Part shown: positions 14,591 to 20,080 of the stretch, piece after piece
Position numbering within the stretch: position 1 is the stretch's first letter
Layout: every line of letters begins with the position of its first letter
Virus record (IMG/VR): IMGVR_UViG_2687453297_000002
Span: 1-24,666 of that record
Source: a virus
Taxonomy: Duplodnaviria; Heunggongvirae; Uroviricota; Caudoviricetes
DNA: 24,666 bases
Direction: 5' to 3' (one strand)
Notes under the pieces: model-generated
What the model was told of the DNA's origin: nothing
Database searches by the model: none
The model's input: only the letters and a program-made list of their open reading frames with translations
Program-made: the position numbers and the translations under genes

Positions 14591-15288
14591 ACACTTGCTC
14601 CTTTCAGTCCGAACTTAGCTTTGATTTCTGCGATCTTCGCCAGAGCCTGTGCACGATTTAGAGGTCTACCGCCCATGACAGGAAGTTGTTTTACTGGTTC
14701 AGGGATCGCCTCACCACGGTTAATTCTCGCAGTCATATGGACAAGCTCATCTGCGGCCTTACGGCGTAATTCCGCATCAGTAAGCGCATTGGCCCGCATG
14801 TTCTGATACAGGTTGGTAACCAGCCAGTAGTGCGCGTTTGATTTCCACGGATAAGACTCCGCATCCGGATACAGGCCTCGCTTCCGGCAATACTCGTAAA
14901 CCATATCAACCAGCTCGCTGACGTTTGGCAGTCCGGCGATAACGGATGCTTCTTCCCGGCACCATGCAACAAACTGCCCGGGTGATGGCAGAAATGGTCG
15001 ATTCTGCCGACGGGCTACGCGCATTCCTGCGTTAACCTGTTCCATTGTGGTGATCCCGTTTTCCCGGAAAGCCAGAACCCACTGGCGGCGGATTTCGTTC
15101 AGTTCGTTCTGGTCACGGTTAGCCAGACTCGCCGGGAAAGTTGCCAGTAACTGGCTGAACACACCGTTGATGATCTGCGCTACCTGCTGTACCTGCGGCT
15201 TTTCGTCGTACTGTTCCGGCATGTTGTTGGCGATCCGGCGCATCTGCTCACGGTCAAAGTTAACCATCTGTGCGGCGATGTTTTTCAT
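14587..15288 (-). CDS. P: Replication protein P (DnaB helicase loader), lambda P-like
   Basis: 233 aa MKNIAAQMVNFDREQMRRIANNMPEQYDEKPQVQQ…, essentially lambda P as recalled. ATGA overlap with the O stop. Confidence 0.9.
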   Translation of the reverse strand: MKNIAAQMVNFDREQMRRIANNMPEQYDEKPQVQQVAQIINGVFSQLLATFPASLANRDQNELNEIRRQWVLAFRENGITTMEQVNAGMRVARRQNRPFLPSPGQFVAWCREEASVIAGLPNVSELVDMVYEYCRKRGLYPDAESYPWKSNAHYWLVTNLYQNMRANALTDAELRRKAADELVHMTARINRGEAIPEPVKQLPVMGGRPLNRAQALAKIAEIKAKFGLKGASV

Positions 15289-16214
15289 AAATCCACCCCG
15301 TAAATCCAGTCAGTGTTTGTCAGGTCGAGTTTTGATTTTCCGGCTGTCACGCCAGCCTGTTGCTTGTTACGGTTGATTTCGAGTTGAGTCCACTTGTCGC
15401 GGAGTTTGGCCGGACTCAGCACGTTACCGGACCAGAAGTTGTCCTGGCATGCCCAGCGGAACAGCACGCACATGTCGCGGTGGTTACGTCCGTCACGTTC
15501 ACGCATCAGGCGGATATCGTTAGCCCACCCTGCAAAATTTGGTTTTCTGGCTGATGGCGCGATGGTCTTCACCATGTCAAACATCCACTCTGCGGCGGTC
15601 AGGTCTTCTGCTGTCCCCCACTTGCTGCCGCTCTGAATTGCAGCATCCGGTTTCACCACAGGAAGATCGTTTTCTGGCTGGTCAGAGGATTCGTCAGAAT
15701 TCTCGGACGAAAAAGGTTTTATATTGTCTTTTGTTAGTTTGTCTTTTGTGTTTACCTGATTCGGGTAAACGCCTTTACCTGATTTGGGTAAACTTTTCTT
15801 ACCTGATTCAGGTAAATTTACCTCTTTCAGGTAAACTTTATTTTTCTTACCTGATTCGGGTAATGTTGACCATTCACTGACCACATTATTAATGCCGATA
15901 TTCCGCCCGCTCTGAATAAAAATCCCACGCTTTACCAGAACACTTTTTGCAGCAGAACACTTGTGCGGCAATATCCCGGTCAACTCGGAAAGTTGCTCGT
16001 TGCTCACCCAATCCAGTTTTTTATTAAAGCCATATGTTTTGCGCATGACAGCCAGGAAGACCAGAAGCTGGTGCTGTGTTAATCCGGCCAGCATCACAGC
16101 TTCCAGCAACTCATTTGCAATGCGCGTATAACCATCATCGAGATCTGCCACGCGCGGCTCCTTTTGTGCCACATCCGGCACTGGAAAATTGAATATCTCA
16201 GCAGTGTTTGCCAT
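15285..16214 (-). CDS. O: Replication initiator O-like protein; gene contains the origin iterons
   Basis: From the ATG at 16214 (GGGAGG upstream): MANTAEIFNFPVPDVAQKEPRVADLDDGYTRIANELLEA…, resembling the lambda O N-terminus. The listed ORF extends to an alternative ATG at 16304 that overlaps the upstream gene stop; the true start is uncertain. Confidence 0.8.
   Translation of the reverse strand: MANTAEIFNFPVPDVAQKEPRVADLDDGYTRIANELLEAVMLAGLTQHQLLVFLAVMRKTYGFNKKLDWVSNEQLSELTGILPHKCSAAKSVLVKRGIFIQSGRNIGINNVVSEWSTLPESGKKNKVYLKEVNLPESGKKSLPKSGKGVYPNQVNTKDKLTKDNIKPFSSENSDESSDQPENDLPVVKPDAAIQSGSKWGTAEDLTAAEWMFDMVKTIAPSARKPNFAGWANDIRLMRERDGRNHRDMCVLFRWACQDNFWSGNVLSPAKLRDKWTQLEINRNKQQAGVTAGKSKLDLTNTDWIYGVDL
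15752..15863. repeat. Five iterons (TTACCTGATTCGGGTAA-like, each an internal inverted repeat) inside the O gene, with an adjacent AT-rich tract: candidate replication origin
   Basis: Copies at 15752, 15775, 15799, 15818 and 15847 (17 bp each, 0-3 mismatches), spaced 19-29 bp. AT-rich region at about 15711..15750 on the downstream side relative to O transcription, mirroring lambda ori organisation. Confidence 0.75.
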
Positions 16215-16300
16215 AATTCCTCCCGCAATGAGTGTGTTACGATTTGCACCTGAAAGTCGGTTCTGTTCGCGCAGACCGGCTTTCGCCATTTCCGAACCTG

Positions 16301-16846
16301 TCATATTGCCCCCAGCATGGTGGTGACCATCGCCATCAGTGGACCAGCCAGATCCGGGTCCACACGAAACATCGACACAATGCCTTCACTCATCTCCTTC
16401 AGTTTCTGGTGGCGTGGTGCGTTGAGAATGACAGCCTGTTTTGCCTCACTGAGTTCCTTTTCCATTTCAGCCAGCCGAGCCATGAAGCTATCCTGCTCAA
16501 CCAGGTGGCCGCGATATTCCAGCGGTAGTACCGCCAGAATTGCCGGGGTCAGTTCACGCACGTTATTTCGGTATTTTTCAGAATCGAATTTGTTATCGAG
16601 GAAGCGGAACAGCTTCTGGCGTGCACGGCTGACATCATCAGGAAAATCGATGGTGCCGCCGCCCTGCTCCCGATACTCATTCACAATGAGTGCGGCAACA
16701 ACATCCTGATTATCTGCAGCCGACCAGGCGCGAACGGCATCACGGATTTTTTCGTGGCCTGGCGCCTGTTTTGTTTGAGAACGATTTATCACCGCAGTCG
16801 GGCTAAATCCGCTAGTCTGTTGGTATGTAAGTGGTTGCATAGTCAT
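16301..16846 (-). CDS. Hypothetical early-operon protein in the cII position (possibly YdaT-family regulator)
   Basis: 181-aa ORF directly downstream of the Cro-like gene and upstream of O. Not lambda CII by sequence; the family guess comes from position and vague resemblance only. Confidence 0.4.
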   Translation of the reverse strand: MTMQPLTYQQTSGFSPTAVINRSQTKQAPGHEKIRDAVRAWSAADNQDVVAALIVNEYREQGGGTIDFPDDVSRARQKLFRFLDNKFDSEKYRNNVRELTPAILAVLPLEYRGHLVEQDSFMARLAEMEKELSEAKQAVILNAPRHQKLKEMSEGIVSMFRVDPDLAGPLMAMVTTMLGAI

Positions 16847-16870
16847 TGCCTTATCAGTTAACGCCGCAGA

Positions 16871-17098
16871 TTAGGCGGCAGAATTACTCGCGTTAAACAA
16901 TGGTGCGAGGTCGGGACGAATATCTGCTGGTTTAATCTTTCCACCAGTGGCTGAGACAATTTTCATTACATAGCGGGCATCAATTCCGCCACCGTGTAGC
17001 CAACGCCAAACAGTGGGCTGGGCTACACCGCATAGATCTGCCAGTCGTTTTTGACTACCTGTAATACTGATTGCGAGTTGAATGGTTTGATTTGTCAT
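16871..17098 (-). CDS. Cro-like small HTH regulator (YdaS/Cro type)
   Basis: 75 aa, divergent from the repressor gene. Its HTH (…LADLCGVAQPTVWRWL…) shares the motif GVAQPT-x-WR with the repressor HTH (…LAKASGVAQPTIWRLT…). Confidence 0.65.
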   Translation of the reverse strand: MTNQTIQLAISITGSQKRLADLCGVAQPTVWRWLHGGGIDARYVMKIVSATGGKIKPADIRPDLAPLFNASNSAA

Positions 17099-17208
17099 TA
17101 TTAATTCCTATTGGTATTACAATGAATAAATAATAGCAATGCGTATTAATCATAACAATAGCAAAACGTGTTTTGACCATCAATACGCAAGCGTATAAAT
17201 TAAAACTT
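17099..17208. promoter_or_regulatory. Divergent promoter/operator region between the Cro-like and CI-like genes (OR analogue)
   Basis: AT-rich 110-bp intergenic region containing AATAGCAATGCGTATTA (17132..17148), AACAATAGCAA (17154..17164) and the inverted repeat ATACGC-AA-GCGTAT (17183..17196). The first two motifs recur in the OL-like region. Confidence 0.6.
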
Positions 17209-17901
17209 ATGAAAAAAGAAACTCTTGCTGATCGCTTAAACCTAGCGATGGAACAATCTGGAATGTCTCAAGGCGCTCTTGCAAAGGCGTCTGGCGTAGC
17301 TCAACCCACAATCTGGAGACTGACAAGCGGCAACGCGCGCGGCTCAACAAAAATTGTTGAAATAGCTAATGCATTGGGTGTTCGAACAGAGTGGCTCTCA
17401 TCAGGCATAGGCCCGATGAGAAATGACGGTCAACAATTAGGGAAGCCTACTGCCAACCATCCCAAATACTTCAAGATTGACGTTCTTGATATAGAAGTGA
17501 GTGCCGGGCCGGGAGTCATCAACCGTGAGTTTGTAGAAGTTCTACGCTCGGTTGAGTACTCGTTTGACGATGCTCGTCACATGTTCGATGGTAGGAAGGC
17601 AGAAAATATCCGCATCATTAACGTACGCGGTGACAGCATGTCAGGAACGATTGAACCTGGTGATCTTCTATTCGTTGATATCACGGTTAAATCTTTCGAC
17701 GGTGATGGTATCTATGCGTTTCTGTACGACGACACAGCCCATGTAAAGCGCCTGCAAATGATGAAGGATAAGCTGCTGGTTATCTCTGATAACAAAAGCT
17801 ACTCACCGTGGGACCCGATCGAGAAAGATGAGATGAACCGGGTATTTATCTTCGGGAAAGTTATTGGGAGCATGCCGCAGACGTATAGGAAGCATGGATA
17901 G
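17209..17901 (+). CDS. CI-like prophage repressor (HTH_XRE N-domain plus LexA-like S24 autopeptidase C-domain)
   Basis: 230 aa from the ATG at 17209 (MKKETLADRLNLAMEQSGMSQGALAKASGVAQPTIWRL…). The C-terminal domain carries a Ser (…RGDSMSGTI…) and Lys (…VKRL…) arrangement typical of S24 self-cleaving repressors. The listed ORF begins at an upstream TTG. Confidence 0.85.
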   Translation: MKKETLADRLNLAMEQSGMSQGALAKASGVAQPTIWRLTSGNARGSTKIVEIANALGVRTEWLSSGIGPMRNDGQQLGKPTANHPKYFKIDVLDIEVSAGPGVINREFVEVLRSVEYSFDDARHMFDGRKAENIRIINVRGDSMSGTIEPGDLLFVDITVKSFDGDGIYAFLYDDTAHVKRLQMMKDKLLVISDNKSYSPWDPIEKDEMNRVFIFGKVIGSMPQTYRKHG

Positions 17902-17981
17902 TACCAATTAAAAATTATCAACCGGGCATTGTGCTCATTCAGTAAAACAACTTAATTATTCATTTTAGAATGGAGAACTTA

Positions 17982-19043
17982 ATGGATACTTTAAAATATG
18001 AGAAATTCTCTGATTTTGATCACAATGACCCATTTTTTGACTCTTTAAAAAAAGATTATAAAGAGTTTCCTCTTTGGTTAGAAAAAAAAGCCAGAGAAGG
18101 AGAATCAGCTTATGTGCTCTATGATGACAAGCATAAAATCGAAGGTTTTATGTATCTAAAAGAAAATGATGATGCAAATGACATTAATCCAGCGCTCCCA
18201 CCAGGACGTCATCTAAAGATAGGAACATTCAAATTTGAATCTAAAGGCACCCTTCGCGGACAACGATTTCTAAAAAAAGCGTTTGACCATGCATTTTCAT
18301 CAAAATCTGATGATATTTATGTTACTGTTTTCGACAAACACGTCCATCTAATAAAACTTTTCCAAACGTACGGATTTTACATTCATGGTGAAAAAGAAAC
18401 ACATAACGGGAAAGAGTTTGTATATGCGAGGTCTTTGCATGAGCCTTATGGTGATATTTTATTAGATTACCCTCGAATAATGACATCAAGGGCCAACAAA
18501 TATTTACTGGCGATTTATCCCGAATATCACACTAGACTATTCCCTGATTCAAAACTTGTAAATGAATCACCAGATATTGTCAAAGATATATCCCATGCTA
18601 ACAGCATTCATAAAATTTACATATGTGGAATGCGTTCTGTGATGGGAATGAAAAGAGGAGATATCATTGTCATCTATAGAACCGGAGACAAAAAAGGGCC
18701 AGCTCGCTATCGTTCTGTAGCCAGTACATTATGTGTAGTTGAGAGCGTAAAAAATATTTCTGAATTTTTAAGCGAAGATAGTTTTGTAGACTATTGTATT
18801 CGTTTTAGCGTATTTTCTGAAGATGAACTCAGAAAAATCTATAAAGAACGTCGATACCCTTTCATTATAAGATTCACATACAATCTGTCTTTGCCAAAGA
18901 GACCCAATCGTGCTATTTTAATAGATCATGTGGGGCTAAATGGTTCGCGTGCATTCCGATGGAGTCACTTTAAACTCACAAATGAGCAGTTCTTAAAGAT
19001 CATCGAGTTAGGCAAGATAAATGAAAGTTTTATTATCCATTAA
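17982..19043 (+). CDS. Hypothetical two-domain protein in the rexA position: N-terminal GNAT-like fold, C-terminal PUA-like (ASCH/EVE-like) region
   Basis: 353 aa from the ATG at 17982 (GGAG 8 nt upstream; the listed ORF starts 4 codons earlier). N-terminal region shows a GNAT-like pattern (…LKIGTFKFESKGTLRGQRFLKKAFDHAF…IYVTVFDKHVHLIKLFQTYGFYIHGEK). C-terminal region (…KYLLAIYPEYHTRLF…MKRGDIIVIYRTGD…RSVASTLCVVESV…) resembles PUA-like domains. Domain calls are by eye and need HHpred or structure prediction. Confidence 0.5.
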   Translation: MDTLKYEKFSDFDHNDPFFDSLKKDYKEFPLWLEKKAREGESAYVLYDDKHKIEGFMYLKENDDANDINPALPPGRHLKIGTFKFESKGTLRGQRFLKKAFDHAFSSKSDDIYVTVFDKHVHLIKLFQTYGFYIHGEKETHNGKEFVYARSLHEPYGDILLDYPRIMTSRANKYLLAIYPEYHTRLFPDSKLVNESPDIVKDISHANSIHKIYICGMRSVMGMKRGDIIVIYRTGDKKGPARYRSVASTLCVVESVKNISEFLSEDSFVDYCIRFSVFSEDELRKIYKERRYPFIIRFTYNLSLPKRPNRAILIDHVGLNGSRAFRWSHFKLTNEQFLKIIELGKINESFIIH

Positions 19044-19398
19044 GCCTGAGTTTGCAGAAAAAATATTGAACGGAACAAAGCGGTTCGAGTTTCGTAAAGG
19101 TATATTCAAAAATCCGCAAATTAGCACCGTTGTTATTTATGCCACGATGCCATTAGGTAAAGTTGTTGGTCAATTCCGTATTGAATCAATACTAAGTGAC
19201 GAACCGGAATCTCTTTGGAAAAAGACGGAAAAACACGCAGGTATTTCTAAGCAATTTTATGACTCATATTATTCAGGTAGAGAAAAGGCCTACGCAATAA
19301 AAATTGGTGAAGTGGAAAGATATAAAGAACCAATTCCTATCTCTGCTCTAGGTAGTAATATTAAGCCACCACAATCATATCTTTACCTACCTGCGTAA
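19021..19398 (+). CDS. Small ASCH-domain-like (PUA-like fold) protein in the rexB position
   Basis: 125 aa MKVLLSIKPEFAEKILNGTKRFEFRKG…VVIYATMPLGKVVGQFRIESI…AYAIKIGEVERYKEPIP, matching the characteristic ASCH pattern. Overlaps the upstream gene by 23 nt and is followed immediately by a strong terminator. Confidence 0.55.
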   Translation: MKVLLSIKPEFAEKILNGTKRFEFRKGIFKNPQISTVVIYATMPLGKVVGQFRIESILSDEPESLWKKTEKHAGISKQFYDSYYSGREKAYAIKIGEVERYKEPIPISALGSNIKPPQSYLYLPA

Positions 19399-19402
19399 GA
19401 AT

Positions 19403-19429
19403 CCCGGCCACCGTGCCGGGTTTTCTTTT
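19403..19429 (+). terminator. Rho-independent terminator closing the repressor/cargo operon
   Basis: Stem CCCGGC / GCCGGG with loop CACCGT, followed by TTTTCTTTT. Confidence 0.8.
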
Positions 19430-19553
19430 GTCCCCTCATCACACAAACCGTTCGAAAAACCACCACATCCTCCCTTCAGTTATCGCTATGCGATACAAGT
19501 CACAAAATTAATTCTTTTTGCTATCAAACAGTTAATATCAAAACACATCAATC

Positions 19554-19594
19554 AATAGCAATAAGTATTGATACAGCCAATAACAATAGCTATT
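19554..19594. promoter_or_regulatory. OL-like operator region: two motifs shared with the OR-like region, including the 10-bp palindrome AATAGCTATT
   Basis: AATAGCAATAAGTATTG (19554..19570) matches the OR-region motif at 14 of 17 positions. AACAATAGC-TATT (19582..19594) parallels AACAATAGCAA in the OR-like region. Confidence 0.55.
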
Positions 19595-19873
19595 ATCACC
19601 ATGTCGCAACAACACAACGATACGGCAATCACCTGATTCACCGTTGCGATGACCGCTTAGATCCGCAGCTTGAATTTCAGCAGGCTCCGGGGAGTGCGAG
19701 GGGTGAAGCGGACGCGTGAACGTCGGTGTGACCAGCTGAAATCAACTCAACACCTCATACCTCAGTCGCTTCAACGAGGCGGCTTAGTTATGACAACCGG
19801 CGGCCATCCACCGCCTGAATACGCGCAGAAGTCTCTATATGTTCAGCAGCCCAGCTTACGGGCAGGAGTTTTT

Positions 19874-20080
19874 ATGGTTCATCAACATTACGGAACGCAG
19901 ACCGTTAATCGCGGTGCGGTCATGCCAGGAATGCTGGTCAAACACAAAGATGGTACCTGGACTGCATCAGCTAATTTACGCGGACGGCTTTATCTGCATC
20001 GCGGCATCGAGCGCACTTATACCCGTGATTTGCTCGTGGAAGTTTTTCTCGACGGACGCGGCAACGGCCTGAATCACTAA
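19874..20080 (+). CDS. Kil-like small protein (position-based; host cell-division inhibitor candidate)
   Basis: 68 aa from the ATG at 19874 with AGGAG 5 nt upstream ([30 protein letters not shown]…). Ends just upstream of gam, where lambdoid phages carry kil. The listed longer ORF begins at a TTG. Identity uncertain. Confidence 0.4.

Follow-up and report, generated by a model that had tools for sequence, protein, structure and literature searches.

The two overlapping genes that follow the repressor in the window (the whole stretch of DNA that was analysed, 24,666 nt) are best explained as a member of the GNAT-EVE + ASCH family, carried as low-GC cargo in the slot that rexAB occupies in lambda and serving as a toxin-antitoxin-like exclusion module expressed in the lysogen, a reading to which we assign a probability of roughly 0.6. 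The cassette is a typical PDC-M11/GevTA member whose exact sequence is widespread and already annotated, and novelty is rejected.

The local region is that of a lambdoid E. coli phage in which the plus strand corresponds to lambda's leftward direction, and positions 17100-19600 are 100% identical to phages Lambda_4C10, 4A7, D2, 1W and 3W. The features of this region are as follows.

15285-16304, minus strand: O.
16301-16846, minus strand: cII-like gene with a YdaT domain.
16871-17098, minus strand: YdaS/Cro-like gene.
17105-17164: OR-like operator cluster, with CAATAGCAA-type motifs at 17105 (minus strand), 17131 and 17156.
17158-17130, minus strand: PR-like promoter facing the cro-like gene (TTGTTA-17-TATTAT, extended TG).
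17173-17201, plus strand: PRM-like promoter facing cI (TTGACC-17-TAAATT).
17209-17901, plus strand: cI-like repressor (Pfam Peptidase_S24 1.3e-18, HTH_3 1.8e-6; labelled cI in the identical phage records).
17982-19043, plus strand: gene A, 353 aa, with an N-terminal GNAT domain (~1-155) and a C-terminal EVE/ASCH-type PUA-like domain (~165-353); equivalent to PDC-M11A and to GenBank 'GevT'.
19021-19043, plus strand: 23-nt dual-coding overlap of A and B (A C-terminus ...NESFIIH*, B N-terminus MKVLLSIK...).
19021-19398, plus strand: gene B, 125 aa, a stand-alone ASCH protein of the ZmASCH subfamily; equivalent to PDC-M11B and to GenBank 'GevA'.
19403-19429, plus strand: intrinsic terminator at the end of the cI-A-B unit, with a 6-bp stem of GC pairs only, a loop of 6 nt and a TTTTCTTTT tail.
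19553-19596, plus strand: OL-like operators, with motifs at 19553, 19578 and 19584.
19568-19596, plus strand: PL-like promoter facing kil/gam/bet/exo (TTGATA-17-TATTAT), overlapped by the OL-like operators.

This arrangement agrees with the initial annotation, which had described two genes overlapping by 23 nt (the ORFs at 17982-19043 and 19021-19398) directly downstream of a CI-like repressor on the same strand (the HTH_3 + Peptidase_S24 gene at 17209-17901). Beyond the terminator, OL/PL is followed by a kil-annotated ORF, gam, bet and exo. Gene A could start at 17970 or at 17982, with its stop at 19043; the ATG at 17982 is the likely start because a GGAG lies 6 nt upstream and homologues of 350-357 aa begin MD(N/S/T)L. 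Best homologue E-values of 1.7e-237 for A and 2.5e-74 for B indicate that both ORFs are real genes. The GC content of the cassette is 0.33-0.37, as against ~0.5 in most of the flanking DNA, and an Rfam scan of the whole window returned no RNA families.

The control regions would fit a single lysogenic unit consisting of cI, A and B. Across the 24.7-kb window the 9-mer CAATAGCAA has just two exact copies, at 17156 and 19553. Each has a one-mismatch copy beside it at a start-to-start step of 25 nt (17131/17156 and 19553/19578), and further one-mismatch copies lie at 17105 on the minus strand and at 19584. The two clusters overlap with promoter-like pairs of hexamers facing cro, cI and the recombination genes, and the proposed bracketing of the unit by OR-like and OL-like motifs is confirmed at 17105-17164 and 19553-19596. 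The -10 element of the PRM-like promoter ends 7 nt before the cI ATG (17209), which suggests that the cI mRNA is leaderless, as in lambda. A terminator had been reported directly after the second gene and none between repressor and cassette, and both statements stand. The hairpin at 19403-19420 with its T-run (-15.2 kcal/mol, z -3.8; 0 of 200 shuffles fold equally well) is the sole terminator-like site within 16800-19800 and the positional analogue of lambda t-imm; in the 80-nt gap between cI and A there is neither a terminator-like site nor any significant structure (z +0.81).

Assignment of the cassette to a family is the firmest part of our reading. The PADLOC-DB v2 model PDC-M11A matches A at 2.1e-133 (residues 6-356 on model positions 10-356 of 357) and PDC-M11B matches B at 6.8e-52 (residues 1-123 on model positions 1-122 of 132), while a copy in phage PhiR47_2 (GenBank PV340567.1), 98.7% identical in DNA sequence, is labelled GevT toxin and GevA antitoxin, 'Gev' presumably being short for GNAT-EVE. 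Bell, Wolf and Koonin (2020) described an operon encoding a fusion of GNAT and EVE, in some cases with a PIN domain at the N-terminus, in which the fusion gene almost always adjoins an ASCH gene and often one for an AAA_17 ATPase; they predicted this operon to be a prophage toxin-antitoxin system, stated that none of the modules had been characterised as of 2020 and, as relayed in that paper, credited the first description to Iyer et al. 2013 (PMC7641849). Here we find the N-terminal GNAT domain, the fused C-terminal EVE (PUA-like) domain, the ASCH gene in the same operon and a full-length HMM match, and membership of the GNAT-EVE + ASCH (PDC-M11/GevTA) family is almost certain. The initial annotation had called the cassette uncharacterised and had recognised no named defence system with this architecture; this claim is incorrect in view of the PDC-M11A/B matches, the operon of Bell et al. 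(PMC7641849) and the GevT/GevA annotation of PV340567.1. The toxin and antitoxin labels rest on GenBank annotation and prediction. The searchable literature yielded PMC7641849 and an incidental mention of PDC-M11, but no publication behind the GevT/GevA annotation and no experiments on the family.

Profile searches of the PDB and structure prediction both gave protein A an N-terminal GNAT acetyltransferase fold and a C-terminal PUA-like (EVE/ASCH) domain, as had been proposed from its sequence, while searches of the full-length protein against Pfam matched no family. Among homologues from 80 species (45-74% identity), residues T90, G93, R95 and K98 of the acetyl-CoA loop are at least 97% conserved, as are Y113/T115/F117, Y130-G131-F132 and G143/E145 and, in the PUA-like domain, the motifs D202-x-S204-x-x-N207-S208-I209-x-K211-x-Y213, Y232-R233-T234 and Y300-N301. 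Judged from sequence, conservation of the acetyl-CoA loop and PUA-like motifs points to an enzyme under selection. On our reading of an alignment with PaiA, A has Phe127 where GNAT proteins canonically carry a tyrosine, four positions ahead of the GF motif, with the invariant Tyr130 sitting one turn later; catalysis by A is therefore an assumption. Profile searches detected no specific sequence link between A and TacT, AtaT or KacT. Comparison of the C-terminal domain of A with the B family by hhalign gave a weak match (36% probability) in which only the first strand and helix were aligned (K-x-LL-x-I-x-PE), and on this result we make no claim of close paralogy between the PUA-like modules of A and B.

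The name given by NCBI to the large protein is plain 'N-acetyltransferase', and A has weak NCBIfam matches to PaiA and PseH, as might be expected of an ordinary housekeeping or metabolic acetyltransferase carried by chance beside an unrelated small gene. These matches are, however, far below the cut-offs (15 vs 250 bits), the pairing of A with B is obligate and its overlap conserved across phyla, and the genes are mobile, patchily distributed and low in GC, all of which make this explanation barely credible.

The small protein had been said to fit the ASCH pattern, and the Pfam ASCH match (2.5e-8) and homology to ZmASCH bear this out; its predicted model is a soluble globular beta-barrel (pLDDT 95.9). 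The closest characterised homologue of B is this Zymomonas mobilis protein (PDB 5GUQ), an Mg-dependent ssRNA-binding ribonuclease that binds both ssDNA and ssRNA, cleaves ssRNA in an Mg-dependent manner and has a basic cleft holding Tyr47, Lys53 and Ser128 (PMC5615036). Across 79 species, the functionally tested Tyr47 and Ser128 are kept in B as Y40 and S119, the latter within an invariant PQS motif, and R25, T42 and Y83, which would line the modelled RNA cleft, are likewise invariant. The equivalent of Lys53 is offset by one position and varies among the homologues, and the base-pocket residue Trp15 of ZmASCH corresponds to an invariant Lys8 (K8) in B. Identity between B and the E. coli N4-acetylcytidine amidohydrolase YqfB is 13%; B appears to belong to a different ASCH subfamily, and at what we take to be the position of the catalytic Thr24 of YqfB there is an invariant Glu23. 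B-like ASCH domains also occur fused to ribosomal protein L22 (NCBIfam PRK12279, 2.8e-15). RNA is favoured over DNA as the target because B is related to an ssRNA-cleaving ASCH protein and because of these L22 fusions and the PIN fusions found in the family.

These observations bear on the possibility that A acetylates a (modified) DNA base and that B reads the modified DNA, the pair acting as a self/non-self or epigenetic system that depends on modification. We know of no GNAT that acetylates DNA, and both the RNA substrate of ZmASCH and the fusion to L22 count against such a role. The proposal of DNA-base acetylation has a published origin, being attributed to Iyer et al. 2013 in the account given by Bell et al. 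(PMC7641849), but the same paper places the prophage GNAT-EVE clade outside any association with type I R-M, and we consider this reading quite improbable.

Surveys of related loci show that the pair is both common and closely knit. Of 5426 complete E. coli genomes, 275 carry the cassette at 99% identity or more as a single chromosomal copy; O157:H7 EC4115 is among them, and two or more distinct cI alleles precede these copies. In one E. coli genome an IS1 element interrupts A while B is intact. A 'frameshifted' A in E. coli SCU-485 was considered as a case of toxin decay and rejected, since the adjoining Gam and Bet are also frameshifted, which suggests assembly errors. Clustered at 50% identity, the homologues of A fall into 1421 groups; their hosts belong to Proteobacteria, Bacteroidota, Firmicutes, Acidobacteriota, Verrucomicrobiota and Campylobacterota. 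Within a genome-locus sample of 80 species across many phyla, B accompanies A in 79 of the 80 loci, the sole exception being truncated where its contig ends; in 76 loci B comes immediately after A on the same strand, and in three Vibrio/Photobacterium loci it is inverted. An ATG or GTG is positioned exactly at A_end-22 in the frame of B in 72 of the 76 same-strand loci, which, given the many phyla represented, indicates that the dual-coding overlap is ancient. Viral contigs gave the same picture, with A immediately upstream of B in 80/80 loci, although this set comprises the 80 closest relatives (found with B) and is biased to enterobacterial prophages. The two proteins are also joined in single polypeptides, with ASCH fused to GNAT-EVE in P0186 and P0204, and the domain variants encountered include TIR-GNAT-EVE (P0124), PIN-GNAT-EVE-ASCH and ASCH-...-GNAT-EVE fusions.

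The position of the cassette within prophages is equally informative. As the initial annotation had stated, the pair lies where lambda carries rexA-rexB, that is, between cI and the terminator preceding OL/PL and co-directional with cI, and we regard the rexAB-slot analogy as sound by position, not by homology. In sister lambdoid phages whose flanks are the same, this slot is filled by different cargo, namely genes annotated as HipA toxin/HipD antitoxin in PhiR5_1 and three hypothetical genes in PhiR70_1. Among the 80 closest viral relatives, and on the basis of crude ORF calling that considered the nearest gene only in all of our neighbour surveys, the gene upstream of A encodes an S24-type cI in 25 loci and a 186-type CI in a further 25, the latter with an integrase downstream, while the remaining 30 loci have 19 distinct upstream proteins, of which 16 are short repressors of the HTH_3/Phage_CI_repr type. 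These three upstream groups indicate that temperate phages of differing types have repeatedly taken up the pair in the transcript on the repressor (lysogenic) side, and its position behind several kinds of prophage repressor favours expression in the lysogen. In Klebsiella prophages a 355-aa gene lies between the 186-type CI and A; it is not a paralogue of A and has no Pfam matches.

Such a location has consequences for the suggestion, made by Bell et al. (PMC7641849) for prophage forms without PIN, that GNAT-EVE is a counter-defence factor by which the phage opposes restriction or other immunity of the host. The cassette is indeed phage-borne and present in complete phage genomes, but it is found in the lysogenic (repressor) transcript before the terminator rather than in an early lytic operon, and the pair is also met in defence islands outside phages and in forms fused to TIR or PIN. 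We view this suggestion as very doubtful.

Outside phages, the immediate neighbours are heterogeneous and, across phyla, mostly not defence genes. An AAA_17/18 gene is the neighbour in 11 of these loci; immediate downstream neighbours in other species include SIR2/ThsA, GajB, a UG29 reverse transcriptase (RT_UG29) and several PDC candidates, and a V. cholerae copy sits among type I-F CRISPR-Cas, a SNIPE nuclease and a SIR2 protein. An association with defence is indicated by the TIR-GNAT-EVE fusion, the V. cholerae neighbours and the ThsA/GajB/RT_UG29/PDC neighbours. We put a toxin-antitoxin-like role in exclusion or defence at slightly better than even odds.

Alternatively, the pair may be a pure addiction module that stabilises the prophage through post-segregational killing or a loss penalty and has no anti-phage role. 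This would accommodate a compact, translationally coupled two-gene module in varied mobile contexts, its toxin/antitoxin annotation in GenBank and the HipA/HipD-annotated toxin-antitoxin pair in the identical slot of sister phages. Integrated lambdoid prophages nevertheless escape segregational loss, the ASCH partner looks to be a stable globular protein (pLDDT 95.9) rather than a labile antitoxin, and immunity is suggested by the TIR fusions, by the neighbours in defence islands and by the listing as a PADLOC candidate, making addiction alone unlikely.

Under the favoured exclusion reading, A and B would be transcribed with cI from the PRM-like promoter of the lysogen up to the terminator at 19403-19429, with B probably translated by coupling through the 23-nt overlap. 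A would be the effector ('toxin'): its PUA-like domain would dock on a nucleic acid, most likely an RNA, for instance an (aminoacyl-)tRNA or some other species that may be modified, and its GNAT domain may then acetylate the docked target or an attached moiety and so block translation. The (aminoacyl-)tRNA target is suggested by analogy with the PUA domains of tRNA enzymes and with GNAT toxins, and acetylation of RNA or aminoacyl-tRNA as the toxic act is a tentative proposal. B is envisaged to bind single-stranded nucleic acid through its Tyr/PQS cleft, as ZmASCH does, and may keep A harmless by competing for substrate, by binding A or by removing or destroying the product. A superinfecting phage that upset the balance of A and B could thereby trigger exclusion or abortive infection, to the benefit of both lysogen and prophage.

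A more specific possibility is a writer-eraser switch, in which A acetylates a specific RNA or RNA-linked amino acid and B is an enzyme constantly removing or cleaving the acetylated product. B would then be no binding antitoxin and would instead be analogous to DarG acting on the products of DarT or YqfB acting on ac4C, with phage infection tipping the balance towards the acetylated state. We rate this variant as improbable; if true, it would constitute the first acetylation-based enzymatic toxin/antidote pair in prophage-encoded exclusion.

Here we have placed in the classic lysogen-expressed exclusion slot a cassette that is common, being found in 5% of complete E. coli genomes, O157:H7 among them, and whose family is spread over many phyla. 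To the existing description of this family our survey adds recruitment of the pair 3' of at least three repressor types, retention of the 23-nt dual-coding overlap across phyla, placement of B in the only ASCH subfamily shown to bind and cleave ssRNA, and TIR-fused and ASCH-fused variants. These additions provide testable hypotheses on an acetyltransferase-based immune or toxin module rather than a new kind of system, and the family is a good target for experiment because we found no published mechanism.

Comparison with known systems delimits what the cassette may share with each. Similarity to lambda RexA/RexB encompasses the slot, the strand of cI, the presence of a terminator after the second gene only and the two-gene nature of the cargo, with expression in the lysogen and a role in exclusion both presumed for the cassette by analogy. 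The proteins themselves are different, as had been anticipated: there is no relationship in sequence or fold, A being an acetyltransferase fusion and not RexA-like, Pfam matches are limited to ASCH in B, and both predicted models are soluble and globular. RexB is a multi-pass membrane protein, in contrast to the soluble beta-barrel ASCH protein B.

With TacAT, AtaRT, KacAT and ItaRT the cassette shares a GNAT-fold effector, and it is from these systems that the model of aminoacyl-tRNA acetylation is borrowed, as an analogy, for A. Type II GNAT toxins are single-domain proteins of ~160-175 aa that are neutralised by an upstream, labile RHH antitoxin, whereas A is a fusion of GNAT and PUA-like domains whose partner is a downstream, folded and well-conserved ASCH protein. 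The order of effector first and neutraliser second is thus the reverse of that in the type II GNAT systems, and no solved GNAT toxin was present among the PDB profile matches of A. The closest correspondence is with the GNAT-EVE + ASCH family, with which the cassette shares the same two proteins, their order and domains and a gamma-proteobacterial prophage habitat; it represents the minimal form of this family, without PIN and AAA_17, and its particular feature is residence in the cI-to-terminator (rexAB) slot.

The conserved junction between the two cassette genes is arranged as follows.

17982-19043, + strand: gene A, a putative toxin of 353 aa with a GNAT domain and a C-terminal EVE/ASCH-type PUA-like domain
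19021-19398, + strand: gene B, a stand-alone ASCH domain of 125 aa
19021-19043: 23-nt out-of-frame overlap coding for the C-terminus of A (..ESFIIN/H, then stop) and the N-terminus of B (MKVLLSIK), both conserved

Among the 76 loci of an 80-species sample (L014-L093) in which B lies downstream of A on the same strand, 72 carry this 23-nt overlap, across many phyla; the depth of conservation of this dual-coding junction is unusual. Homologues of A also occur as fusions, namely TIR-GNAT-EVE, PIN-GNAT-EVE-ASCH and ASCH-...-GNAT-EVE (P0124, P0186 and P0204). The joining of ASCH to GNAT-EVE in the latter two architectures argues that A and B act on one substrate or complex. The TIR fusion points to a role in immunity. 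In E. coli E138 (L095, NZ_AP022351.1, 1501-3692), an IS1 element splits gene A and leaves gene B undamaged, one example of the putative toxin knocked out in nature.

Other arrangements were detected in other bacteria. Three marine gamma-proteobacterial loci (Vibrio/Photobacterium; L025, L029 and L034) have the ASCH gene and A on opposite strands, and an Acidovorax locus (L091, 6001-9892) has a tandem pair of GNAT-EVE and ASCH systems, the second with a longer effector (481 aa) and its own 155-aa ASCH protein. The V. cholerae copies (L004-L006) include an extra AAA_17/18 gene and adjoin type I-F CRISPR-Cas, a SNIPE nuclease and a SIR2 protein.

Differing contents in sister phages illustrate that the cI-to-kil slot is a cargo hotspot: PhiR5_1 (L176) has genes annotated as HipA toxin and HipD antitoxin, and PhiR70_1 (L177) three hypothetical genes. 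In Klebsiella P2/186-like prophages (L007-L009, 4909-5976), a 355-aa protein with neither a Pfam match nor similarity to A is encoded between a 186-type CI and the GNAT-EVE gene, and may be additional lysogen-expressed cargo.

No N antiterminator was recognizable from the PL-like promoter to gam (19430-20080). The ORF at 19670-20080 (136 aa) has no Pfam match and is annotated as Kil in a sister phage; despite this annotation, its first residues include many arginines (RGVKRTRERR). In a Pantoea relative (L014), an N-peptide gene occupies the corresponding position.

The cI mRNA is probably leaderless, as in lambda, because the end of the PRM-like -10 element (region 17173-17209) lies 7 nt upstream of the cI start codon (ATG at 17209). 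The positions of cro and cII (16301-17098) encode a YdaS-type protein (PF15943, 9.6e-15) and a YdaT-domain protein, where lambda has cro and cII themselves; by its predicted proteins, therefore, the immunity region is of the Rac/YdaS-YdaT type and not of the lambda cro/cII type.
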